Assembly: GCA_049724395.1 (NCBI GenBank)
Contig: JAUGWO010000067.1
Span: 1 to 64,000 of the forward strand
DNA from: Spongospora subterranea f. sp. subterranea
Lineage: Eukaryota
Length of the DNA: 64,000 bases
Direction: 5' to 3'
This document shows, in pieces, positions 529-59,587 of the stretch. Made by a program: the position numbers and the translations under genes. The first letter of the stretch is position 1, and the number at the start of each line of letters is the position of its first letter. A model generated the notes under the pieces. The model saw only the letters and a list, made by a program, of their open reading frames with translations. It had not been told where the DNA came from and made no database searches.

Positions 529-1335
529 ATGATACTGTCAGCAGACGGCACCATCATGCTGCTGCAGAAACTGATAGTATTCAATGGACTCTGTCACTTG
601 GATTTTGCGTTCTGCACGCCATCATTGTTCGCCACTTACGAACACACTCTTCCTAGGTCGAGTGTTCCTGATGAAATCAAACTGAAAATCAAACCTGCTG
701 TCCAAGCACCCCAAAGCAGGTTCATCGACCTTTCTGAAGACAATTTCGACGTGACTGTTCGACGCGTATATGCACAATCAGTGATTCGTCAGCGATTGTC
801 GCCCGAAAACGTCCTGATTCCACTGGTCGTTTTTATTTCCGAACAGGCGTCTGTAAGAAATTCGGGATCAACAAACCCTTCTGGTTTGCGAAGGGCGACC
901 ATAGGCAGGGTCCGTCTGGCAACAGAAGAAATCGTTGCTGCCATCCAGGCAAACCCTCCCAGTCTTCCTGATCGAGCCGTAATTGGCGAGATAGCGACGA
1001 ATATTTGGTCGAGGACCAGGGCGCGAGCTGTCAATCCTGAACCAGTCGAGCAATTGCCGGCCAGCAACACATTCCGGCAGGCGATGCGATTGGACTACCT
1101 CAGAAGTTCACTTGAAAATCAGGATGCGGACGAATTCGCCCAAATCGTGTTGGGGGTCAATAGGACTGAACTTGTCACTGTGGAGGTGAATATCGCAAGC
1201 CTTCGATCCGCCCTGGGTTTGCCACCATATCCGTTGTTCGGAAACGATATATTTCATTCCGACGAACCCGTTCCGGCAGTTGTTGGACAAGACCTTAACG
1301 ACGTCGATCATGTCCTATCGGACGACGAAAATTAA
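529..1335 (+). CDS. Hypothetical protein, partner ORF convergent with the IS630/Tc1 transposase (true start may be the ATG at 474, with a frameshift near 645)
   Basis: 268-aa intronless ORF. Its stop overlaps the transposase stop in the shared TTAA at 1332-1335. No recognisable catalytic motif. Confidence 0.6.
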   Translation: MILSADGTIMLLQKLIVFNGLCHLDFAFCTPSLFATYEHTLPRSSVPDEIKLKIKPAVQAPQSRFIDLSEDNFDVTVRRVYAQSVIRQRLSPENVLIPLVVFISEQASVRNSGSTNPSGLRRATIGRVRLATEEIVAAIQANPPSLPDRAVIGEIATNIWSRTRARAVNPEPVEQLPASNTFRQAMRLDYLRSSLENQDADEFAQIVLGVNRTELVTVEVNIASLRSALGLPPYPLFGNDIFHSDEPVPAVVGQDLNDVDHVLSDDEN

Positions 1336-2390
1336 AGATAGACCCCAAACATTGATTTATTTAGCTCAGTGTGACCGTACCCACAGGAATTGTAAAATTT
1401 ATGACCAATATGTCTTAGATTCTTCGTACACATTGGCATAGCCACTTTTAGAACAGCCTCAGGGCAAACCCTGAACGTCAGATCAGCATGTTTCTTGAGC
1501 CACTGCTTTAAAAGTGCAAAACCTTGCTCAATAGGGTTCAACTGTGGCGAATAAGGAGGCAGGAACATGAGTTTCGCTCCTGATCTGTGTATGACCTGTT
1601 CCAATTCCCGATACATATGGATCTGTGCATTATCTAAGATAACAATGCTCCTTGGAAGTGGCCACGGATTCAACTTCGGAGCGACGATTTCCAGGAAAGC
1701 ATCATGGAACTTCTGGCGAGTGAACGTCCCTTCGGTGCATTTCCAAGAGAAAAATCCCTTTGTATCGAACGCGGCGAAAACAGAGACTCTGTTCCCTCGT
1801 TGAAACGGTTGGCGTACCAGAGCTGGCGTGTTGATCCTAGACCATCCATGACGACGCAAACAGTCGCGACCGTCTTTGCTCGTTTCGTCCAGGAAAACTA
1901 GTTGCTCAGGATATGAATAGATTCGCGAAAGCTTTTGATAAAATTCTCTGAGCTGTTCAGGAACGCTCTCGCGAGCGCGCTTTTCCAGGATTTTTCTGGA
2001 CACTTTAAGATCATGACGAAGGGCCCGGCAAATTGTCGCAGACGATATATTCGTCAGTTCGGGAAATCTGAGAGCCAGCTCCTCTTGGAGTTCTTCAATA
2101 TAGAAACAGGGATTGTTGACGATGAAGGTGTGCACATAGTCGTAAACCTCGGTGGGCCATCTGGCAGACCTTTGTCGAACAGCGTCATTAACGACATTAC
2201 CAGTCCTTTCAAACAGGGCAATCCAACCTTTGATGCTAGTTTTCCCAACACCAAGAAGAACGGAGACGTTCTCTATTGATGTAGAATAAACGTAATGCAG
2301 AACAATGCATCGCCAACGTAGATCTCGACTCCACATCCGTAATACCAATCTGATCAACCGCCCCGCAGTATTTCTACCGGGTAGGACCAA
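1332..2390 (-). mobile_element. IS630/Tc1/mariner-superfamily DD34E transposase, apparently intact
   Basis: N-terminal HTH-like region (SRDLRWRCI...VSVLLGVGKTSIKGW) and catalytic motifs VFLDET, ILDNAQIH, FLPPYSPQLNPIE, with 34 residues between the second D and the E. First ATG at 2336. Confidence 0.92.
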
Positions 2391-2844
2391 AGGATTAGTG
2401 CAGGTTTTGGGCTAGTTGAACTAGTCCAATCAGAGGGGAAATAGTAAAACATTGCAGGCCTGCACGTAATAGGCCGCTCTTTATTCAGAGAAGCAATGTT
2501 TTAACCAATTTTGGCAGTCAAACTGTCAAACTAAAAACCACCTCCGGTCAAACTAAAACCTTGCTCGGAATTTGGTGACCCCCCTCGGACTTTTTTAAAA
2601 CCACGCTCATTTAGCACTGGGAGCCCAAAATATATGAAACCCACAATATGTGTTCTATGTTAAGATTTAATACAATGAGAAGAATGCATTTCTGACAGCC
2701 GCTTGATAGCATGTGCCCCGCTTGAACAATTTCAAGAAAAAAATGAAGAAGTTGTGATAGTTTTCCCTTTGTAATTAGAAAACGTAATGGGAAAGACGAC
2801 AGCTTTCGAAGCTGCCTTCCACATAGCAGCAGCATTGAGATGTG

Positions 2845-39000: not shown

Positions 39001-41183
39001 AGTACAGCAATGCTGGGGAGCGAAACACTAGGAATGTTCCTTGATTCACGTGAATCAATGGATATGCTGCTCGAATGTTCCAGTGAGGGATTCGCCGCCG
39101 TTTTAACATTGCTTCGTAGTACGAAAGAGAAGCTCAGATTACAATCGTTATATTCATTGGTTACCAACTCATATGATTACTCGCTGGTCATGTTACTGAT
39201 TTATCGCTATGGAATTACAGGCTGCTATATCTCATAATCCGGAATACGCCAACGAGATCATAGAGAGGAAAGGGTTTCAATTGATTACTGATCTGATTAT
39301 GGCCGATTCGGTAATCGATGGTTTTATGATGTGACTTGGCGGTTTCAAAAATTGGACATAACTATGGTTCTCGATCAGATTGGAGATCCCATCGACTGCG
39401 TCCATATACTGAGAAATGTAGCGCGCAATACGATCAATCACCAGGAGTTCATCGACCATCGAGGGATTGCAAGTCTTCATAAGCTGTCAAACCAGGCGGC
39501 AATAAAGATCAACGATAAAGTGGGATGAATGCGACGTTTTTGTTCATGGTGATAATTTTGGGTGATGTTAGGCTCAATTACTTATACTAAATGCACTATC
39601 CGACATCGCCCACTATTTTGAGGATTATTCTCTGTCATCGGATCAATTACAACTGATGGTTTCGACTTTGGTCAGCCCAATAAGGTTCCATTGGGCTAAG
39701 TCCGCTCTCCATGAAATTCACGTTCTACTACAGGGATATCGATAAGAAGGGTGGATCTAATGTCGACCCTGCTGTTATAGAATTATCTGTTTTCGCTCTC
39801 AACTGTCTCCTCGTTAATGACGATTGTAAATGGTCTGGGAAGTTGATTCAATGCATATCTGGAATCTGATCATAACGGATCCGCCATGAATAGGTTTGCT
39901 GCGATGGATGGCGTAGCTGCTCCGTTGAACCATATTTACAATTCCACAACGGACCTGCGTATGATGCGTGTTGCATTAGCACTGTTATTGAGCCAGGTGG
40001 AATGTCAACGGACACAAGTTCCATTTGCACTTAAAGGAGGCGTACGACTTCTTAAGGATCTAGCCTTACACAAGGTCGGCACGCTCTTAAAGGGCCAAAA
40101 CTATTTCTGACAAATTGGACAGGATTTGTCCTTGAAGAAGAGAAAGGCTGTAGGGCATTTAGCAAGATGGCAATGAACCCAGATACACATATGATGATGG
40201 TGGAGGCTAACGTGCTCCCGATATTGATGGTCACAAGGTCTCATCCGGATCTGGAATGTAGACGGTTGTCATTGGATGCTTTTTTGTCAATATTAGACAA
40301 CGGTATAGCCACAGGAATATACTGCATAAATATTCATGACAATGTCTTTTTTAGCGAAAATTCAAGCTACGATTGAAAAAGATGGCGAAATCATCGATAC
40401 TGTTATTGCTTTATCGAAATACGGTATTAGTTCTGCAGTTAAGGCGAAGGTAGGGAATCTGACAATCAGTGAATAAGGACACTGAGATTTTTTGAGTAGG
40501 CGACGTCAATACTAGTTAACCTAGCGCAGCGTAGAAAATCGACTCAATTCGGACAAGAACGAAGAGAGAGAATGGATCGTATAACTAAGATTACATCAGC
40601 AACAAACTCCAATGCTCCCAGTCACTTAGACCAAGTCCCCAAACCAAAAAGTGGTTTTATTGAAGATCGATTACCGATCCTGAAGGATAGTGAAATTCCC
40701 AGAGCACAGATGCAAAGGGTTACTGAAAACGAAAAAGTCAACGCAGGAATAGGAAAAAACGTCACATCAGCAATTAAGCTTCGTGAAATGTGCTCCACCG
40801 ATAGTGGGAGTGAGGACGCACGACTACCAGATCCCCAAGATTTACAAAATGCACCAAATACTTGTTCCAATGGTCAACACGAGCCAACTGAAGACATGGG
40901 GTCAAGAACCGGAAATAGAATGAGCAGTCAACTTCTAACCGGCCATTCTGAGGTTGCAAACGGGATTGAAGACAACATCACACAAAGACTTGAACCAGCT
41001 GGCTCGTCCATTCCAACCAGATCAACGCAATCATTGACTGAAGATATCATATCCAACATAATCTGTCAGATAGAAGTGTTGAACCAGAATGGATCTGCAG
41101 TAGCGTCCACCCAGGATAACGCTCAAGGTGTTTCGTCAGTAGACCGGTTTGCTGGAGTTGCGCCTGATAATTCTCCTGAGTGA
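30064..41183 (+). CDS. Very large armadillo-repeat protein (Vac8-like repeats), dozens of short introns
   Basis: Recurrent ARM helix-3 motifs in successive exons (QRYAALCFGNVA, RYAIMAVANLAA, ATRALANLS, RYALLSLSNLAAN, ALMLANLAGN). Low-complexity final exon ends at 41183. Confidence 0.8.
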
Positions 41184-41283
41184 CCCTTCGACAATAGCTG
41201 ATCCAATTCCATTTGGACAGAATTTTATACAAAAATACAGTTTGAGTTGCTGTTTTATAGCTTTGCAATGTATTGGGATGATA

Positions 41284-44200
41284 TTAGCTTCGCTGGGTTC
41301 TCGATATACGTTGAACATTTTGAGTGATTGCTGACCAATCGATATGAAGATGGTCATTTGGTCCGCCTGCAGGGGGATCTAGAGCATTACATCGGACGAG
41401 ATAGGAGAGGTAGACACGGACTGAGAACAAACAGCCAAGTCAATTTACGAACGGAAACAAGCGGCGACTAACAGATTTTATCAAGAGAAGGAAACGGTAT
41501 CGATGAGTACCGCGTAACGTTGGTTCTATCTAGATGGAGAGAGTTCGCGAGATCATCAGCCCATGTTTCCGTAAGATGCGATATGACCGAAGCCAGGGGA
41601 TTGGACTCTGAAGTTGACAGCGACTGCAAAAGTGAGTGTCGCCACGTCGAATACGGTAAATTCGAAATCGAGAATCCTACAAATTTCGTTTAACCATTTA
41701 TAGACAAATTTGTATCCATACCATAGTCTTGGATTTGCTTGAACATTGACACAAACCGCATGGGTTTAGGGTTTGTTACATGAAATATAACAATTGTCTT
41801 CTTGGCAATTTAGCACTAGACCAATAACAGTTTTGGTAACGTAGTCCACAGGGCTGATATCGACGCTATGGTTTTGTCCTAGAAAAAAAGACGTTAGCAC
41901 ATTCATCTAACTATCAGAAACAACGTTACCTAGACCGAATTCCAAAAATGGACAAGAACCCAGTTGAACGCAGCCTGTAACTATAAATACATGATATATG
42001 GAGGTGTGCTACCTTACCTTGCACAAGTCTGACTAAAAAGTCGTCGCTATTCCAAACTCCGGTACGAGAATCGCCAGTAACATATCCAAGTCTATATATG
42101 CTCGCTATTCGTAGCACAATTCAGAATATTCCCGATACAAGTCAAAGAATAGCAACCTTTGATGCCTTTCTGTCGAGCTTTGGTCACAATCTGCTCTGCA
42201 ACCCATTTTGATTGCGCATACCCACCAGAAATTCCTAAAGTCTGGTACAGTTAGGCAAAGTAAATTCTCGCACATGGCGTAACCGACCGGTGCAGTCATT
42301 ACTCAGAGGAGACTCCATTATTGACGACGACTTAGCTAACGATTTCGTTAATGATGTATCGAGGACTGATGTCGTGCTGAGTGGCGTAGATATTAAAAGG
42401 AGGTTAATCAACAACAAATAATTATTAACCTGATATAATGAAACGGCTTCATCTTGGTGGTAAGTGATAATCTTAAAAGGGTTTTCGTAGCATCGACGTT
42501 CACTGGCCGTAATTTCGAGTACGGAAGAAGCCAATGAACAAAAGCGGCATTGTGAATAATCAAATTGATGTCTTTCGCCAGACTTGAAAACGCCTCCTAT
42601 TAGAGGTTTGGCCAATATTGGGCAGTCGGCATCCATCAAGAATATTTACCGGCGATAACCCCAGGTTGGGCTTCGAAAAGTCCGATAAAACAGGGACAAT
42701 ACGTTTTTCGAACTCAGACTTCCAGACAAGATGCGCTTGCAATGCTTGAACGATCCTGAATGATGTCAGTCAGCAGAATTTGGGTTAAATCTACAAAAAC
42801 AAACCTTAGTTTACCGGCGTCAATGGACGACGCCCGCACGGTACAATGTACAGTGATGGACGGATTGGTTGTTAAAATTTCTGCCAACAAGAAACATCCT
42901 ACAAACCCGGTCGCACCTGTCAACTAAATACGGATTTAAAGACATGCAGATGCCGAATCGGATAGCACAAAACGATACCAAAATATGTTCGATGAATTCA
43001 CGCTCGCCTGTTTCGCATGAAGGCGCATCTAATCCAGAGCACCAATCCAAATTGACCTCAGAAAGTAAATCCAATTGTCCTTGTCCGTCGCAAGGTCTCA
43101 CAGATTTGATAGCATCAAAAGAGTCAATCGCTTCAGACAGCTTCCGAATTGTTGGATTGAGAAACAATGTGTTCAAAGGAAGTGCCAGACCAAAAACTCG
43201 CGAAAGTTCTAATTTTGTAACAGTGAACCAGAGATATACACATATGAGAACAGGACAAAGCAGACCTAATGTGACACGGGTCGCCAAAAGACTGTGTCCA
43301 CCGCAATCAAAAAAATCTGCATCAATATCGACATTGCCGTCGTTTGGAACGAGTCTCGCCCAAACCCGTTCGACTTTCATTTCGGATTCGGAAAGAAACT
43401 CAACAGGCTTCTCGCCTGATGTCTGATTATCTGGAACGCGAAGCGCAAGGCGATTGATTTTCCCGTTCGGCGTCAACGGCATCGCCTGAATGATGTGTAT
43501 CTCGCTGGGGACCATGTAAACAGGTAAAGTGGCGCGAAGGAATGACCGCAAGTCTGCTTTGATATCATTCGAATCACGCTCTTCGTACCTCGTGGGCGCG
43601 ACCAACACGACAAACGATGCCAGGCGCTTATCTGTGGCCACAGCGAAATTTCATCAGTACCAAACCAAACTGTGCAAAGTTGAATGACCGTTGATGGAGT
43701 TACTGTCAACAACTATACTGACACACTCCTTGACCATCTCATGTTGTGCTAACCGAGCATTAATTTCGCCCAATTCAATTCGGAAGCCTCGTATTTTGAC
43801 CTGGATTGCATCGTAAGCATAAATTTGCAAAACACACAACGCGTTGACCTGGTCATCAGCACGACCTGAGCATTCGACCCATCCCTTGGAGTTATACCGA
43901 CCCAAATCCCCAGTGCGGTACCTACAGATGAATTCACATCAATATGTTATCGACGTTGCATAGCAAACGACACACATTCGGTCCCCAGGTGATGGGTTTT
44001 CCATAAACCAGTTATTCAGGAATTTTTCCAGGGATTGTTCTGGCAGGTTAAGATACCCTTGTGCGAGATGTGGAGAACGGACGTATATTTCACCGCGTTC
44101 ACCAATAGAAGCAAGCTTTCCTGCTGCGTTGACAATGATCATCTGGACGTCTTTCATTCCAATTCCAACTGGAACCACATCTTTGATAGTTGTTAAATCC

Positions 44201-47200
44201 TCAGGAACGATTAAATGTCCAACGGCGCGCTGGGTTTCCGTTGACCCATACATATTGATGCATTTAACATTGGGCGCAATGTGGCGCAAACGAGCGACAT
44301 CGGACTTGATCAAACAATCGCCCACAAAGAAGACAAGACGAAGTGACCTTATAGTAGAGCGGGTTGTGGCAGATGTTAATAATTGACCCATAGCGGGTGT
44401 CAAACAAGAAACACTAATGTTTGAATCGCGCATCCATTGAGATAATGAGCCATCGTAGATTGTGGATTCATTTGGAATGCAGATGCGAGCGCCAAAGAAT
44501 AAAGGCGTAAAGATATCCCGCTGAAGAGGATCATGGGCAATGCCAGAGCACATACTATGCAGCAAATTACTCAAGCGACAATGAAAGAACAATAAAATTC
44601 GACTAACCTAAACCGGTCCTCGGAACTGATGTTAAATGTGCTTTTCATCCATGGATAAAAATGAGTAAGCGGGCCATGACGTCCGCACACACCTTTTGGC
44701 AAACCGGTCGATCCGGAAGTGAAAGTCACTACAGCGATACTGTCCTGCGTTATACTCACGGGTGTCGCTGCGTCCCGGCAAATAGGGGAATTATTTTCAA
44801 CAGGAATACTGATAAAATCCATCGGATTACTGAGATCAGGCAGCGCGATCTTGATTTTGAGATTTAACTGCTGATCTAAGAACGAAGAAATCTCGTCTGG
44901 AACGGCGCCGGCTGCATCAATGGAAATCCAAACCGATGGACGCGCGATTTTCAAACAGGATATAATCCTGGACGGTGGATATTTAGGGTCCATCATCGTA
45001 AAAGAGGCTCCAGCTTTAAGGGTTCCCATTATTGCCCAAACCACCGATGCGCTTCGGTGTCCGTATATGGCAACGATATCGTCGGTCTTGACACCACTGA
45101 GTCTGAGCGTAGCAGATAGCCAAGATGAGCACATATATAGATGATGATAAGTAATATTAACACCTAAATCAACTAAGTAAATGAGAATTGAAAGAAACTA
45201 GTGTAATTACCCTCTGAAGATATAGCAACGCAGTGCGCATAGTATTTGGCATTGCGAGCGAAGATGTCTGTAATGGGACCAGGCCAAGAAGCATCTAAAG
45301 GTTCGGCTGGGTCCGGGATGAGGTTCTTCCATTGGTTGCTGATCAGATTGACGTCTAAAATTGAAGCATTTCTTTCGTTCGTGGAAACAACGTGACAAAC
45401 CGAATCGGCAAACTCCTGGATTGATTCTGGCAGATACACGCTCGGGTTATAATCAATGGTGACGGCGCCATCGGGCCAGATCCGAAGAGACACGTCAGCG
45501 TCGCCAATTGTTTCTCGAAAAAGACTTCTCAAGCTCAAATTTCGCTCAGCGATGAATTCGAAATGTGGTTTGAAGTCAACAGAATTGGTAAATCTAACAG
45601 GAAGCTCTTGATGTGACATGGTATTGAACCACTGCTCACAAACATGGTTAAACAAATCCTTCAGCGTCATCGTATCAGAAATATCAAACCGGAGCAGTGC
45701 TCTCTCTTCAAACGGACCAATAGAATGTTTCAGCGATGACCTTAAGAGCAATTAATACATGGATATGCATGCAATGACTCCTATACCTGTTCCTATGATC
45801 GATGTAGGTCCCCAATAGAAAATTTGGCTCCAAAGTACGCCGATAGAGGATAAGGACGGCAGCCGTGAGAACAAACATTTCGGGATTGGGGATAGCACAC
45901 ATCGCTTCAGGAACAACAACGGAGTACCGAATTCTCAGGGAACTACTAAAAATAGTGTTAATTCTAACAAATGCACGAAAACATGAACAAAAGTACCTTT
46001 CCGATTCACAAGCAGAAAGATCTCCAGGAAGCTGAATATTCAAAAGATCGCTTCCTGGTGTGCCGTCAGACAGAAGGTTTTCCCAATAAGCACGGTCGTC
46101 GAGTAAAAGGCGAAACTGAGGGTTGTCATTTTCGCGACCAGAGAGCATTCTTTCTATCTGCGTCGTTTGCCAGCAATCAAAGTTGAGATATCCAATGGAG
46201 AAAGGGATTGGTTCGGGATTGGTGATTTGGCTAAGCAGAATCGATGCCGATGTTTGATCCGCGATTGCAGGATGAACCGCAAGCGCGATATGCTGGTTGG
46301 AAAGAAGTATTTGGATGGGCAAACCAGTTGCGATGAGATCGTTCGCAGTTTTGACCGCACGCGCTGCAAAGTCGTGAAATGTAGTTTGGTCATTCAATAC
46401 CGCAACGGTTTCATCCGATGAAAATTCACCCGTCGGTCTGATCACGCGAACAATTCCCTCTGAATCAATCTGCGTGTTAAGAATGGGAAGGCGTTGGCAA
46501 ATCTGCCTGACTCGATCTACGACAGAAGACTGGAAAGCTGAGATTGGACTTTCTGATGGTATCTCCTGTAACTCGACGACAGGAATACGTTTTCCGGGGT
46601 TGTGAAAGTGATCGGGCACATCCACTTCCAATTTGATTGACAGGCCCTCGACACAGGAAGAATAAACCGCCTTCGCACGTGCCCAAACGAGATCATCCTC
46701 AGACGTAAATAAGTCAAGCAACAGCGGAGCCAGCTGAGAGCTGAATTGTTTACTGGTTTCAAGCGGAATCAGACTGGGGAGATTCGGGATGGCGATCAAA
46801 TCCAGTGGACAGCGTCCATTTTGAGCTTCAATCAACGTCTGAGTGGGCGCCGCAAAAAACGAGGATTTTTGATAGATCGGGAAGGGGTTTTGGGCAGATC
46901 CTGGCTCACAACTGATATCGACAATGACGGACAACCGCCGCGGTTCCGTCCTGATAATCTCATTCGTCAGCCACGGTGTCGCCAATGACGCATCGCCAGG
47001 GTTAATTCTGATAGCGTTCACGACGATATCAAAGTCGAGAAGTTCAGGAAAAGGCCCCCCTCGAGAAGTCTGTTCACGCGTCCAGGTAACCACGTCAAGG
47101 CCCAGAGAAGACGCGAAATCAACCGCTCCGGAACCACAACGGCCTTGGGCACCGATAATGCAGCACCGGGGCTTTTTCTGTGTGAATTGTTCTGCCATTT

Positions 47201-47904
47201 TTACAAGGGCTTCAACACAGTCCATCGTCAAGTTCTCATACATTGTGGCGGGCAACGAGGCACCGGGATATCGACATGCCAAGGCTTGACTCGACCAGGC
47301 GAATAATCCACTGGGAAATACAGTTAGATAACGGCAGGGTCAGATGCAACGGCAGTTGCATACGATGATAGTCCAATTGCTCCAGCAGTATACCCGAATG
47401 ATGCAAGACGATTGTTGGAGTCGTCGGTCAGGTATTCGAAGTCCAACAGAGAACCTCCGCCTCGGATGAACGGAAGCAGATTGCGCTGCCATTGGGGTTG
47501 ACGCTTGAATGAATGCGCGAAATAGGCGTGATCATGAACAAATTTATCAGGGAGAGGATGAGGCTGACGCAACCCGACAATCAAAACTGTTGTTGGGGCA
47601 GACTGATAGGAGTTTGGATCGACAAGAACACATCCGCAATCGAAAAACTCCTTGTCGGAGAATGCTCTTTCCACTGACCGTTCAACAAAAACCCTAGGCA
47701 ATGACGTGTGAGCGGGTTCCGCGTTTCGTAAAAACATTTCGAGTAGATTTACTTGATTCCGCGCTGGATCAGCAATGCAGTTGAATCCGGAGTCAAGGGC
47801 GACCTTCGATCCACTGAACGATGATCGGGCCGTGCACCTCGTGGGCATACGCTTTCCGACTCGGCCCTTAGCCAGATTCCTGTATAGCGCCCATCAGGTC
47901 GCAT
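41284..47904 (-). CDS. Fusion protein: Lys1-type saccharopine dehydrogenase domain + condensation-like domain + Lys2-type L-2-aminoadipate reductase (A-T-R)
   Basis: Lys1 motifs: [69 protein letters not shown]. Lys2 motifs: [75 protein letters not shown], carrier [13 protein letters not shown], reductase [36 protein letters not shown] 45708-47282 spans the Lys1/C junction with no stop. Confidence 0.92.
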
Positions 47905-48310
47905 GATCCGCTCTTGTTATCTATTAAACTGCACTGATTTCTGAGCAACCGTTCGGAGCGACCGCCTCTTCTATAGCCTGTGTCTCGACAGTAACTATCG
48001 CGAGAGCCATGCGGACTGGGCTGAACAACAGCCACAGTCAGGAATGGGCGACGTGTCGCCGCGTTGATCGCCCCACATTTACTCATGTCCATAACGTACT
48101 GCAAGTTCTATTTTTAATTACGGCAAAGTCGCCCCCCACTGTGGAGTGTGGACTCGCAACGAAATCGACCAACTCTGGAACTTTGGTGCAGTGTGGACAT
48201 TCCGAAGGAATCTCGAAAGTCCGACTGGTGAAATCGCCACGTGCAACATGTGAACTTTTTTTTCCGGAAAGCGGATGCAACGCCAATAGGTGGAATTTGA
48301 AAGGTTCAAA

Positions 48311-48986
48311 ATGGGGTTTCCTGATTTGAAGTTGATCTGCTGCGACCGGGTTGGGCGTGCTGAGCCAATTCGACTGGCTCTGCATATATCGGATATACCT
48401 TTCGAGGATGAACGTTTGTCAGACCAGGAATGGGAGTCGTTCAGACGGAAAACCCCATTCGGTACCTGCCCAATCATGACGGTTAACGGCACCCTTTATT
48501 CCCAGACAGCAGCGCTTCTTCGCTATGCCGGCTATATTGGGGGATTAGAGCCCAGCAACCCAATCCTTAGGCTCGCCGTCGATCAGATACTCGGCGGAGT
48601 GGATGACGTCGTCAACGCGCTGGTTCCGTCGATCCACGAAACGGACGCAGCTAAGAAAATGCAGCTGCGAACTGAGGCTTTAGAGACCCAGCTGCCACCT
48701 TACCTACAAGGGCTCGATAGCCTGGCCGGGCAGACCTCTGAAGGCTTCTCAGTTGGAAATCAACTAACAATTGCAGATTTATCCATATACAGTTTATTGA
48801 ACTGGTTCAAATCTGGTATGGCCTGTTTGCTGCCGATAGCATTGCTCTAACCCCCTAACCAAAGGCGAGATTGAAGGCTGTCCTCCAGAGGCAATTGACA
48901 TATACGCGAACCTGACAGCGGTTCACAAAATGGTCTCCAAGAAGCACGGCAAAGTCGCTGACTGGATCGCGGCGCATCGCCCTTAA
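48311..48986 (+). CDS. Glutathione S-transferase, sigma-like (2 exons)
   Basis: GRAEPIRLAL...FEDERL, TPFGTCP, SQTAALLRY, LTIADL. Divergent from the fusion gene across ~400 bp. Confidence 0.93.
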
Positions 48987-49483
48987 GCAGTTTTATCTGC
49001 TGGACAACGGAACCATGCAACGACCCTACGGTTCCCGTTGACTTCAAGAACGACGCCACCGGATGTCCAGTGTCATTTGAAAACCTGTTCAGTTATATCA
49101 CAACGTTATTAAAGCAAAACACAAACGGTTCAGTTATTCTGCGATACGTCGTCTCGTACAGCACCTACCCCTGCCGAGCTCGCGTTTACCCGATGGATAA
49201 TGAAAGGGATGTTAGAAAATACAACAGACATAGCCGACACGTTGTTTCGCGATGGCAGAACCGGAATTATAAACCCCAGCAGTTGAGCGAACAGATCCGC
49301 GGGCTTCGTGAGTTCAAAATAATGTTAGTCTATGTTAAAAGCGAACCGTGAGATCAGCTTTTTTTACCAACGTTTACGGTCGCGGAGTTTGTCGTTGGAA
49401 AAAAAAGTCCGTTCCGGTGTCCGCGCTTGGCGGTGAGAAGCCAGGGCCTGAGAGAAGTACGGCTTCATCACGTTGATCGAGTA

Positions 49484-55361: not shown

Positions 55362-56020
55362 TCAAATATTTTCTTCTAGTGCTGGTAATATCTCACGCTG
55401 TCGCCAGTTTCTTTCGCTGGTGGAAAATAACAGTCCATGTCGTCCGCTGTGTTCCAACAATGGATGAGATACATGAACCGACGGCACGTATTGCAGTACG
55501 TCCTTACTTCTCTTTGTGAACTCAACGGTTTTCTTATTCCGATTTTTTTTGCAACTGACCAATCGCCTCCTTATGATCCTTGTATTAACAGAGTATTGCG
55601 GGACGATTGTCCTTGAAAAGATTGACAGGTCGCCGGTGGTGGTGCCATTAGCATTTCCTTTCCACCGTTGTAGATAATATCTGATACTGACTCGACGAGT
55701 GCAACAGACCTTTTGAAATTGTTGAAAAGTCTGTTGGGTACTTCGGCTTCGTCAACCAAATCACTACGGCGATGCGCTCTGTTGGCAATACCTTCGTTGA
55801 TGATCACCATAAAAATTGCCCTCAGAACAAGTTTGGTCTCGAAAGGCAAATTTATGAGAGGAAAGAACACTTGCGCCAGATAATCTGTAGCTCCATCCAC
55901 TCCACCTTTTGTCTTGAAATAAAGCGATTGAGAACAGTGCTTGAAGGTTTTGACTGGTTTCATCGGTCCATTCAGCTCATTCTCATCTCGAATTATTCGC
56001 CAAAATCTGTAATGTGACAT
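55362..56020 (-). mobile_element. Possible piggyBac-like transposase C-terminal remnant
   Basis: QSLYFKTKGGVDG resembles the piggyBac Y(N)xxxGGVD motif; frames are fragmented. Single-motif evidence only. Confidence 0.4.
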
Positions 56021-56597
56021 GATAAATATCTGATTCAGTTATGTTAACCTATTGTGGTATTACGACGTTTTGAGCGATGTCCATATTGTGGGCCCACGAT
56101 AGCACATGATCAGCAATGCTCGATAGCGCAGCCGCTACTTTGAATCCATTCGTTGATTAGCACTGTGATATCTGACAGACAATAGGGTGTCATTTAGGGA
56201 ATCGACATTGCTTACGGAAATTCAGCAATTGTTCGATATTTTTCTGTCTCCTTTCACGCAGGTGGCCCAAGTTCGGTTTGCGGTTTCTGAATCGCTCTTC
56301 TTTTGTCGCTGCTGTAAGGTTTGTTTTCCGTTGACGTAAGAACAAGGGTCAGGAAAAACGGTTGATTGATATTGGCTACGTGGAATATTTTACATTTCTG
56401 GGGTTTTTTAACGAGAGTTTGAAATTGCATATCCTGTTCTCTATATATTTCTTCACACCTTGTCATCATCAAATCAATTTCTCGTTGTTGCGCTTTGAAA
56501 AACTAATTACATTGCATTTTTTTCTGATTATTCTGAGATCTTTCGGCAACTGGCTGTGATTGTTGTAATTTGAGGCAACTTGTATTACTGTTTTCTT

Positions 56598-57974
56598 CTA
56601 ATTGGTAGGCAACTGGCTTTCATTCTCTTCATTGGCTTTTTTCACAAAACGGTATGCTTCTCTGAGCACTTTATCCAAGTCGTGGAATAACACCTCTTCT
56701 TGATCGTGACCGTTGAGTTCAAAACGGCGAACACGTTCCTGAACAAATTTCAACGCACTGACAAGCAGATCATTGTCACATTGTGGGGACCCCTTGAGGA
56801 TTTCTTGTTTGAAATTCTCTATCCCAGAAGTTGTGAGACTCTCTTTGTCAAAAAAAAGGGACAGCAGGCGTGTATTTTCATAAATAATCTTCTGACTTGC
56901 TTCGAAGTCGTCGTCCAGCAATTCAGTTTGATCCAGCTCTTGGCCCTCGTTCTTTATCGGTTTTTGGTTGTCAATTTGATCCAGCTCTTGGTCCTCGTTC
57001 TTGATCGGTTTTTGGTTGTCAATTTGATCCAGCTCTTGGTTCTCGTTCTTGATCGGTTTTTGGTTGTCAATTTGATCCAGCTCTTGGTCCTCGTTCTTGA
57101 TCGGTTTTTGGTTGTCAATTTGATCCAGCTCTTGGTCCTCGTCCTTGATCGGTTTTTGGTTGTCAATCTGATCCAGCTCTTGGTCCTCGTTCTTGATCGG
57201 TTTTTGGTTGTCAATTTGATCCAGCTCTTGGTCCTCGTTCTTGATCGGTTTTTTGTTGTCAATCTGATCCAGCTCTTGGTCCTCGTTCTTGATCGGTTTT
57301 TGGTTGTCAATCTGATCCAGCTCTTGGTCCTCGTTCTTGATCGGTTTTTGGTTGTCAATTTGATCCAGGTCTTGGTCCTCGTTCTTGATCGGTTTTTTGT
57401 TGTCAATTTGATCCAGGTCTTGGTCCTCGTTCTTGATCGGTTTTTTGTTGTCAATTTGATCCAGCTCTTGGTCCTCGTTCTTGATCGGTTTTTGGTTGTC
57501 AATCTGATCCAGCTCTTGGTCCTCGTTCTTGATCGGTTTTTGGTTGTCAATCTGATCCAGCTCTTGGTCCTCGTTCTTGATCGGTTTTTGGTTGTCAATC
57601 TGATCCAGCTCTTGGTCCTCGTTCTTGATCGGTTTTTGGTTGTCAATTTGATCCAGCTCTTGGTCCTCGTTCTTGATCGGTTTTTGGTTGTCAATTTGAT
57701 CCAGCTCTTGGTCCTCGTTCTTGATCGGTTTTTGGTTGTCAATTTGATCCAGCTCTTGGTCCTCGTTCTTTATCGGTTTTCGGTTGTCAATTTGATCCAG
57801 CTCTTGGTATTCGTTCTTTATCGGTTTTCGGTTATCATCATTCTGCCCTATTTCATTGAGATCAACAGGCTGGTGTTCTTGACGCAGTTGGGTCTCATCG
57901 TCCTTTAGTCCAATCCCTTGTGCAACACCGAACACTAGAGCGATTCCAAAGACGAAAATCATTGACACCTTCAT
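56598..57974 (-). CDS. Intronless secreted protein with 19 tandem 16-aa repeats; candidate effector or surface protein
   Basis: Signal-peptide-like MKVSMIFVFGIALVFGVAQG, repeat DNQKPIKNEDQELDQI, and a 108-aa unique C-terminal domain. Confidence 0.85.
   Translation of the reverse strand: MKVSMIFVFGIALVFGVAQGIGLKDDETQLRQEHQPVDLNEIGQNDDNRKPIKNEYQELDQIDNRKPIKNEDQELDQIDNQKPIKNEDQELDQIDNQKPIKNEDQELDQIDNQKPIKNEDQELDQIDNQKPIKNEDQELDQIDNQKPIKNEDQELDQIDNQKPIKNEDQELDQIDNKKPIKNEDQDLDQIDNKKPIKNEDQDLDQIDNQKPIKNEDQELDQIDNQKPIKNEDQELDQIDNKKPIKNEDQELDQIDNQKPIKNEDQELDQIDNQKPIKDEDQELDQIDNQKPIKNEDQELDQIDNQKPIKNENQELDQIDNQKPIKNEDQELDQIDNQKPIKNEGQELDQTELLDDDFEASQKIIYENTRLLSLFFDKESLTTSGIENFKQEILKGSPQCDNDLLVSALKFVQERVRRFELNGHDQEEVLFHDLDKVLREAYRFVKKANEENESQLPTN
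56925..57836. repeat. Coding minisatellite, 48 bp x19
   Basis: Unit ttgatccagctcttggtcctcgttcttgatcggtttttggttgtcaat with few substitutions; 304 aa = 19 x 16. Confidence 0.97.
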
Positions 57975-59587
57975 AGTTCAAACAATACTACTATGATTGA
58001 AAAGGTAGATGACGGGATCCTGCCCCGTCACCACTCCCCAGTCAAATGCCGCCGTATACTGACAAGCGCCACAGGTGCACTGTTGTACCGTAGTTTTGCG
58101 GACTGCGGCTGAACAGCCCCGCAAACCCTTAACTCCGTGAGTCGGAGTCCTGCTTACAGCTCCATGTTTTTCACCACCTTTAAGAGGGTCCACTGACTCC
58201 TGTTCCTGCGTATCAGTTGAATCACTTTGCGATTCTCTTTGAGATTACGAACATGGTATTGACTATTTGCCGATTTCTGCAAGTGTGATTACTGAATTTG
58301 AGGTCTCAGGTTTACGATAATGCGTGCAAGGTGACGATAGATAAGCCTCCTCCCCTAAAAAATTGTGTTTCTGTTCCGCAATCATTTCCATTTGATCTGC
58401 CGATGGGTAAGGTAAAGCCAATCTCTGCCGCGGGGGACCGTGGCAGCTTGATGTCAGTTGTACGAGTCGACCAGCCTGGCAAAAAAAATTAAAATCTCAT
58501 TCTGTCACTGCGGAGTTGCAGCATTTGAAGGTGGTCGCTTTATGGTCGACCTTAGTCGGAGTGGATAAGGAAGCAGCGTCTGCTCATGATGCCACTCGCC
58601 TTGCTCAGATTCAATTTCGTGAAGATCACATTCGTCGAAAGCAGGAGTGCCACGATTACGCAATGTGGCAAAAATTGAAAGCAGCATCAACGATGGTAAA
58701 ATATTCAAGGTGCCAGTTATCTCCCTGCCATCATGACGGCCCAAGGAGTTGACATGGCACGCGAGATCAATGATGATAGCGTTTTTTTTTTGCATTTTGT
58801 TGCATCCCCAGTTAGGACGTAACGATTTCGGTATATTCTCGTCCGTTTTTGGACATCTTGTCAAGCCAGAATCGAGACTGGCTTCGCAAGGAAAAGATTT
58901 ACAAATGGATTGACGTTGTGAGCTCTGTCACAAAGGACGACGTCTTGAAGTTTGTACCAGAGTCTAAACTGTCCATTCTTGAAGCAGGGTCAGGCGACAC
59001 TAAGGTCTTCAAGAAAATCCTTTCTGAGTACAAATCGAAAGCGGACGGTTTCAGCTGCAACCAACAGCAAATGACTTTATTGATCAACGATGGAAAATTT
59101 TCTTGTCAAAAGGCAGCTAATTTATCGTATACAAAAAAACAGGTCATGTACGTCAAGATCAACCAGGAGAAATCCCAGATGCCGGGCCGAAAAGGAAACT
59201 AGGAGCCCCTACTCGTTATGAGGAGCAGTGTGATTGGTTGGGAAACCTTATCATTTCACGTTTGCAGCGAGGAGAGCCAATGACACGTGAAGAGGCTTGT
59301 TCCGCAACGGTGATTCGGTGGAGTAAATCGAACGATGTCGACTACACATTATCACCTCATTTCACTTTTGACCACAAAAGTTTGACCTCCAAATGGGAAC
59401 AAATCCTGTGGTCTTATTCCGTGGTCTGCAGTTGACGTTGGCGGAGACGGCGCAGATCCAGTCGCAGGTTTTGAAGGAATCGGAGGTGTGGTAGTCGGTC
59501 GCATTGCGGCGCGAACCCAGTCCTCCCGCGCATTTATCCGGTCATGCGTTCGTCCTTCATGTGTTCCTCCAGATGTTCTGCTTTATC

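Follow-up and report, generated by a model that had tools for sequence, protein, structure and literature searches.

A single spliced gene in Spongospora subterranea f. sp. subterranea encodes one polypeptide in which a head with the fold of the saccharopine dehydrogenase Lys1 is followed by condensation-like (C-like), adenylation (A), thiolation (T) and thioester reductase (R) domains. The gene lies on the minus strand of a 64,000-nucleotide stretch (contig JAUGWO010000067.1 of GenBank assembly GCA_049724395.1, positions 1 to 64,000), hereafter the window. Judged from its sequence, the C-A-T-R part is of the Lys2 type, and the whole protein apparently represents an undescribed, conserved form of aminoadipate reductase whose Lys1-derived head has been repurposed. 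The head-C-A-T-R architecture is not unique to the Spongospora genome; it recurs in distantly related protists.

The fusion gene and its transcripts

The gene spans positions 41284–47904, with the ATG at 47904 and the stop codon ending at 41284. The exon model, built from six-frame reading and GT-AG boundaries and supported by RNA-like contigs and alignment, comprises 21 exons and 20 GT-AG introns of 43–59 nt and encodes 1,862 aa. It aligned with the related fusion P0001 at 40% identity over 1,933 columns. Exon 3 (47310–45997, 438 codons) runs unbroken from the NAD(P) lobe of the Lys1 fold past the junction at ~46640 into the C-like region. An earlier note on this DNA, made from the letters alone, had placed the ATG and intron 1 (59 nt, 47752–47694) exactly where our model and a contig joint put them. 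It had also described an open reading frame (ORF; 45708–47282) that crosses the junction with neither stop nor intron. The crossing holds, as exon 3 demonstrates, but that ORF contains intron 3 (51 nt, in frame, 45996–45946) and ends inside intron 4 (46 nt, 45786–45741).

Pfam matches on single ORFs or exons followed the order AlaDh_PNT_N, AlaDh_PNT_C (weak), Condensation (weak, E 0.08), AMP-binding, AMP-binding_C, PP-binding and NAD_binding_4. The Lys1-fold head, of the AlaDH/PNT superfamily, occupies aa 1–385 in exons 1–3 (46638–47904), as delimited by Pfam, PDB matches to yeast Lys1 and an orthologue model. The C-like domain (about aa 386–790, 45326–46637) was assigned from a Pfam match that is weak here and strong in orthologues, and from the motif HPAIADQ. 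It is followed by the A domain (43432–45283; Pfam, NCBIfam, motifs and tree), the T domain (43120–43389; Pfam and a GGHS motif with Ser1382, codon 43293–43291) and the R domain (41383–42993; Pfam and motif), all on the minus strand.

Part of the stretch is present in 13 public runs, none of them recorded as RNA, and eight were aligned to the window. We refer to runs as RNA-like because their contigs lack introns; the RNA origin is a guess. The contigs carry no strand information and do not represent single molecules; runs X1–X4 come from one sample, and X5 and X9 are apparently a single data set. Sixteen of the 20 modelled introns, introns 1–4 among them, were seen directly as contig joints. 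Three further 3′ introns agree with the contig depth table, and the intron at 41472–41421 was placed by sequence and open frame only. The pieces of single contigs in X1 and X2 (5,720 and 6,295 nt) reach from head to R domain, and in both X3 and X4 a single contig covers all 30 bins of 43100–48000 and lacks all 10 introns there. The junction between head and C-like domain is also bridged by single contigs from other samples, X5 (46047–46916) and X6 (46597–47024); none of the contigs outside the X1–X4 sample (X5, X6 and others) spans head to A domain. The Lys1-fold head and the C-like, A, T and R domains thus belong to one polypeptide from one spliced gene, as the earlier note had held; the spliced single contigs that span head to R domain bear this out.

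Intron 4 was removed in X3, X4, X6 and, by piece ends, X5/X9. It was retained in the contigs of X1 and X2, two of the four runs of one sample, from which the other listed introns had been removed. Retention brings a stop after 677 aa, so that such a transcript would yield a head-plus-half-C product or be degraded.

An extra base at 41792 breaks the R-domain frame in the window, which stops at codon 1735. The base is absent from the contigs of all four runs covering the site, and by frame count the frame is then open for 1,862 codons; it is probably an assembly error or a strain difference. An automatic gene model on the assembly with this base would truncate the R domain. In the coding region the window and the contigs differ by 12 single-base changes, seven of them silent; the five that change a residue all fall at aa 383–622, in the linker and the C-like domain.

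The reductase half

TIGR03443, the NCBIfam family of Lys2 (curated cut-off 1030.1 bits), was the best NCBIfam family for all seven orthologous fusions scanned, with scores of 856–1036 bits, one of them above the cut-off. Two exons of the window, scanned exon by exon, also scored best on it. The core motifs of the A, T and R domains (A3, A7, the A10 Lys, GGHS, GxxGxxG and YxxxK) are intact in 9/9 fusions including the window. Fungal Lys2 has the aminoadipate pocket code DPRHFVMRAK. The pocket of the window A domain reads DPRCFVMRA-K and matches this code at nine of ten positions; the Cys at position 278 is present in 10/10 fusion A domains. DP-type pockets resembling those of Lys2 (DPRH, DPRN and others) also occur in 110 of 322 A domains of bacterial multi-module nonribosomal peptide synthetases (NRPSs; P0159–P0277), which are up to 48% identical to the window A domain.

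In 9/9 fusions the HHxxxDG motif of the C-like domain is without its second His (HPAIADQ in the window). The domain is strongly diverged in the window (Pfam Condensation E 0.08; hhalign probability 13.7); in the orthologues P0004–P0006 the Condensation match is strong (E 1.8e-45 to 1.6e-59), and several orthologues keep both C-domain lobes (Pfam 4–450 of 456). As described in PMC7884236, fungal Lys2 carries a C-derived ADA domain, consisting of the C-lobe only, which is required for adenylation. A C-like domain ahead of A is therefore expected here, and the earlier note's view of it as part of an assembly line did not stand, given this domain in fungal Lys2 and the missing His. We also rejected a peptide-forming NRPS module: besides the lost His, the protein has a single module, and no cluster was found among the long ORFs scanned. 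The C-A-T-R half is very probably an aminoadipate reductase in which the C-like domain plays a structural part, like the ADA domain of fungal Lys2. The earlier note's assignment of C-like, A, T (GGHS) and R domains with Lys2 signatures agrees with the Pfam matches, the motifs in 9/9 fusions and the TIGR03443 scores.

The Lys1-fold head and its altered active site

Residues of the head are numbered as in yeast Lys1, read off PDB alignments. Yeast Lys1 was the closest solved structure by sequence to the window head (E 7e-29 and 3e-20). An AlphaFold model of the Phalansterium head (predicted local distance difference test score 93.7), whose input alignment consisted mostly of ordinary Lys1-like sequences, superposed on yeast Lys1 (PDB 3ugk) with a template modelling score of 0.85 and a root-mean-square deviation of 2.8 Å. 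What the earlier note had called a full Lys1-type domain is such a domain in fold, with yeast Lys1 the closest, but not in active site; intron 2 (53 nt, 47363–47311), the second in the head and seen as a contig joint, had gone unmentioned there.

The ligand-binding residues are largely kept. R18, H96, R131 and D277 are present in all fused rows covering them, K99 in 7/7, E122 in 6/7 and D/E281 in 9/9; Q101 and the A-G nicotinamide motif are retained in 10/10. In human LOR, the counterparts of the retained residues hold the three saccharopine carboxylates and make up a closing latch, with Lys93/His111 (yeast K77/H96) as the catalytic pair (PMC13763937).

Catalytic K77 is replaced by Arg in 5/5 fusions covering the site and in two of the three fusion fragments (Arg93 in the window, 47567–47569, aligned to yeast Lys1 and the other fusions); unfused domains have Lys in 138 of 142 cases and Arg in one. 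D319 is Pro in 9/9 fusions (Pro336 by alignment, 46785–46787), against Asp in 126 and Pro in one of 140 unfused domains. D227-I228 became Thr, Gly or Arg followed by Arg in 9/9 fusions; by alignment, the window carries Thr238-Arg239 (47076–47081), an NADPH-type pair. The same swap, Ser266-Arg267, confers NADPH preference on human LOR (PMC9490328). The K13 loop gave way to a fusion-specific insertion of 11–27 residues in 5/5 complete N-termini, where the E11–R18 spacing is 18–34, compared with 7 in 124 of 130 unfused domains. In addition, E78 is variable, C249 is Ala, Y251 is Arg, Lys or His, and the GxxGxxG loop drifts in some members. We take D319, K13 and E78 to have functional roles in yeast Lys1.

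These changes are targeted and do not reflect decay. Across 144 unfused Lys1-like domains, 53 columns reach at least 85% invariance; the fusions keep 47 of these, and K77R and D319P are the only changes among the 53 that are both radical and uniform; simple decay of the head was rejected on this pattern. The fused clade has changes at the catalytic lysine, the K13 loop, D227 and D319 alike, which makes it unlikely, on sequence, that the head functions as a saccharopine dehydrogenase.

Alanine dehydrogenases and transhydrogenase domain I from five bacterial genomes also have no Asp at 319 (Ala, Ser, Thr or Pro followed by Asn), and the true alanine dehydrogenases, those over the cut-off, retain Lys at 77 (4/4). 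The KVKEP lysine and HLA motif of the alanine dehydrogenase family TIGR00518 are not found in the fused heads, which share with it only the loss of Asp319. Pfam gave no match to Sacchrp_dh_NADP or Sacchrp_dh_C in the eight fusions scanned.

Other fusions of Lys1-like domains were met. P0003, P0013, P0029, P0034, P0040, P0064 and P0073 join Lys9 to Lys1 in the order opposite to AASS and have ordinary K77, D227 and D319, and P0030 is a Lys9/Lys1 fusion in reverse order to the P0003 type. P0158 (763 aa) couples an ATP-grasp domain to a Lys1-fold domain and is possibly an opine- or metallophore-type enzyme.

Relatives carrying the same architecture

Searches with the junction exon, one head and a head profile recovered, by Pfam, the head-C-A-T-R order in eight further protein clusters (P0001, P0002, P0004, P0005, P0006, P0007, P0106 and P0153), in five of which the head is shortened at the predicted start; three fragments (P0015, P0017 and P0085) were also recovered. 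P0004 comes from Phalansterium solitarium and P0153 from Rigifila ramosa; the partial P0015, comprising the head and the following stretch only, comes from Paulinella micropora. We take these genera to belong to Amoebozoa, CRuMs and Rhizaria, respectively. Mean identity among the fusions was 48% for the head, 46% for R and 25% for the C-like domain, the least conserved part.

In a tree of 152 Lys1-like domains, from which the duplicates P0008 and P0009 and the degenerate P0057, P0102, P0152 and P0157 were left out, the 12 fused heads formed a single clade (support 0.995). Their sister group consists of three unfused proteins with ordinary K77 and D319 (0.989), and the window head clusters with P0001, P0002 and Paulinella (0.86), a placement that makes a rhizarian source probable. 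The ten fusion A domains likewise formed one clade (1.0) against bacterial NRPS modules, in a tree built without fungal Lys2 and from an A-T search in which 119 of 120 rows were multi-module bacterial NRPSs.

Two scans, both reaching close relatives only, returned no fusion: metagenome contigs gave one locus with 29% identity and no head, and prokaryote genomes gave eight loci, none matching residues 1–356. A search of the ESM Atlas with the head returned only Lys1-like clusters.

We found no description of the head-C-A-T-R architecture in the literature searched, subscription papers excluded. The earlier note, which knew of no described case, is supported to that extent.

Proposed function of the head

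We tentatively propose, at somewhat less than even chance, an aminoadipate reductase whose head would use NADPH to join the semialdehyde and glutamate as saccharopine, the step done by Lys9 in fungi. Our confidence is kept at this level because such an activity has no precedent for the Lys1 fold. From family knowledge, the A domain would adenylate alpha-aminoadipate with ATP, the aminoadipate would be loaded onto the phosphopantetheine arm at Ser1382, and the R domain would free the semialdehyde with NADPH, the C-like domain serving structurally as ADA does in fungal Lys2. The head, binding NADPH, would close on a saccharopine-shaped ligand through the retained R18, R131, K99/Q101 and the K99–D281 latch, with glutamate in the R18/R131 site and, at K99/Q101, the semialdehyde supplied by the R domain. 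H96 may aid imine formation, and the hydride would come from a repositioned NADPH: D319P together with C249A and the Arg, Lys or His at 251 may place the nicotinamide at the carbon on the opposite side of the nitrogen. A base to deprotonate the lysine epsilon-amine would no longer be needed, in keeping with the loss of K77, K13 and E78. The fusion would thereby link one step directly to the next and reduce loss of the self-cyclising aldehyde, and a separate ordinary Lys1 would complete the pathway. A precedent for a second reductase domain acting on a released aldehyde is the fungal ATRR (bioRxiv 10.1101/559534).

Several observations weigh against this proposal. Six of the seven fusions score under the TIGR03443 cut-off (1030 bits), and the A pocket has Cys instead of the fungal Lys2 His at position 278, which leaves the substrate suggested by the A-domain sequence less than certain. 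The NADPH-type loop is found in 52 of 143 unfused domains and in the three sister sequences as well, so the loop predates the fusion. Other samples contain Lys9-Lys1 fusions whose active sites are ordinary. The absence of Asp319 from alanine dehydrogenases hints that the head may not handle a lysine skeleton. We know of no Lys1-fold enzyme that carries out the Lys9 reaction. Finally, kept binding residues combined with a lost catalytic residue would equally be the pattern of a pseudo-enzyme sensor.

Such a sensor is the main alternative, though somewhat unlikely. The head would be non-catalytic and respond to saccharopine, 2-oxoglutarate/glutamate or NADPH, its closure switching the reductase on or off as feedback on a step costly in ATP and NADPH. 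The loss of K77 and its helpers with binding residues and latch intact fits this, the insertion in place of the K13 loop could be a docking surface, and the GxxGxxG loop drifts in some members. Strict retention of H96, D277, D281 and the A-G nicotinamide motif, by contrast, goes beyond what a pure sensor needs, and Arg at 77 would be expected to disfavour binding of the lysine epsilon-amine, the obvious feedback signal.

We regard it as unlikely that the head performs other reductive chemistry, namely amination of 2-oxoadipate with ammonia, conversion of piperideine-6-carboxylate (P6C) to pipecolate, or formation of a new opine-like product. The Pro-Asn at 319–320 does resemble ammonia-using alanine dehydrogenases (Ala, Ser or Thr followed by Asn, with Pro-Asn in one sub-threshold homologue). 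Amination would leave the keto-acid site and the geometry of hydride transfer as they are, follow the N-to-C domain order and feed the A domain, and ATRR again offers a precedent. Yet the third, lysine-side carboxylate site (K99/Q101) is retained, the alanine dehydrogenases keep the Lys at 77 that the heads have lost, and there is no biosynthetic cluster around the gene. The opine-like metabolite put forward as one option by the earlier note draws no support from the housekeeping neighbourhood and is retained only within this alternative.

A head that still works as Lys1, converting saccharopine to lysine, would make the protein a fusion of two non-consecutive lysine-pathway steps. We consider this improbable, even though no family is closer in sequence, features and fold than Lys1 and 47 of 53 near-invariant positions are retained. 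Lys77, replaced by Arg in only one of 142 unfused domains, takes part in catalysis in yeast Lys1 and has its counterpart in human LOR (PMC13763937), Pro at 319 is equally rare, and the NADPH-type loop would push the reaction away from lysine (PMC9490328). Of the lysine-pathway multienzyme proposed in the earlier note, a role in or beside the pathway is supported; a working saccharopine dehydrogenase head, its catalytic residues being changed, is not.

That two adjoining genes or an assembly artefact merely appear fused is very improbable: the contigs are unstranded, one continues into an opposite-strand gene and two keep intron 4 with its 677-aa product, but one exon crosses the junction, single contigs in four runs (X1–X4) run from the head into the reductase half, and eight independent clusters have the identical domain order.

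Comparison with known enzymes

The fusion shares with fungal Lys2/NPS3 (ADA-A-T-R) the A-T-R order, the HDPxQRD and TETQRA motifs, the GGHS carrier, the thioester reductase, a non-catalytic C-derived domain ahead of A and TIGR03443 as best NCBIfam family. It differs in its additional 385-aa Lys1-fold head, its occurrence in non-fungal protists, the Cys at pocket position 278 and, in several orthologues, a full two-lobed C-like domain in place of the C-lobe-only ADA (PMC7884236). With Lys1 (EC 1.5.1.7; PDB 3UH1) the head has in common the fold and R18, H96, K99, Q101, E122, R131, D277 and D281; K77R, D319P, the insertion for the K13 loop, variable E78, D227T with R228, C249A, Y251R/K/H and the attached reductase set it apart.

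Bifunctional AASS (LOR/LKR) likewise has a Lys1-fold domain N-terminal in a fusion and a hydroxyl/Gly plus Arg pair for NADPH, but LOR has retained the catalytic Lys and the Asp-Asn motif, its fusion partner is a Lys9-type domain serving lysine breakdown, and it is much further in sequence from the fused head (E 1e-19, against 1e-89 for Lys1). The fungal glycine betaine reductase ATRR (A-T-R1-R2) combines an NRPS-like reductase with a second oxidoreductase domain, which in the fusion may similarly act on the aldehyde; in ATRR this extra domain is a C-terminal short-chain reductase of demonstrated activity, whereas in the fusion it is N-terminal, of AlaDH/PNT fold and of putative activity. Lys9 (EC 1.5.1.10) catalyses the reaction proposed for the fused head and has an unrelated fold.

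Genomic neighbourhood

The genes around the fusion, read from long ORFs with Pfam, are of housekeeping type (glutathione S-transferase, CBF/Mak21, Pet127, DEAD helicase, lipoyl synthase and similar), and a secondary-metabolite cluster was ruled out on this account. The glutathione S-transferase gene (48290–49190, plus strand) stands head-to-head with the fusion gene, less than 400 bases from its ATG; one contig reads through from the fusion gene, and variants are numerous in the contigs of the glutathione S-transferase gene. On the other side, the 3′ end of a plus-strand neighbour transcript (40500–41420) overlaps the last exon of the fusion (contig piece 40940–41420). Elsewhere, the window holds a Tc1/mariner-like DDE_3 transposase ORF (1332–2411, minus strand) and, at 56000–58000, a probable repeat region with a strong AT skew (−0.36) and three long overlapping ORFs on both strands that gave no clear Pfam match. 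No tRNA was found in the window.

Implications

Automatic annotation would either miscall the head as a working saccharopine dehydrogenase or overlook it. With two clean replacements on an intact Lys1 scaffold, the head offers a directly testable case of enzyme repurposing, towards new chemistry or a built-in sensor. If the Lys9-like reading is right, the AlaDH/PNT fold would gain a new catalytic activity, and one megaenzyme would carry aminoadipate past the free semialdehyde.

In the parts of the literature drawn on here, aminoadipate reductase is treated as specific to fungi or shared only with Corallochytrium (PMC2823734, PMC8779187), and Rhizaria are placed with the diaminopimelate route (PMC3287585). 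We give an even chance to an ancient eukaryotic variant of the alpha-aminoadipate pathway shared by Amoebozoa, CRuMs and Rhizaria: a Lys1 duplicate would have been turned into a second saccharopine-forming reductase, of unrelated fold, or into an enzyme for another new reductive step, and joined to Lys2. A fused form conserved in three eukaryotic supergroups points to a pathway much older, or more widely transferred, than assumed and, if confirmed, would overturn the view of aminoadipate reductase as a marker of fungi and their close kin.

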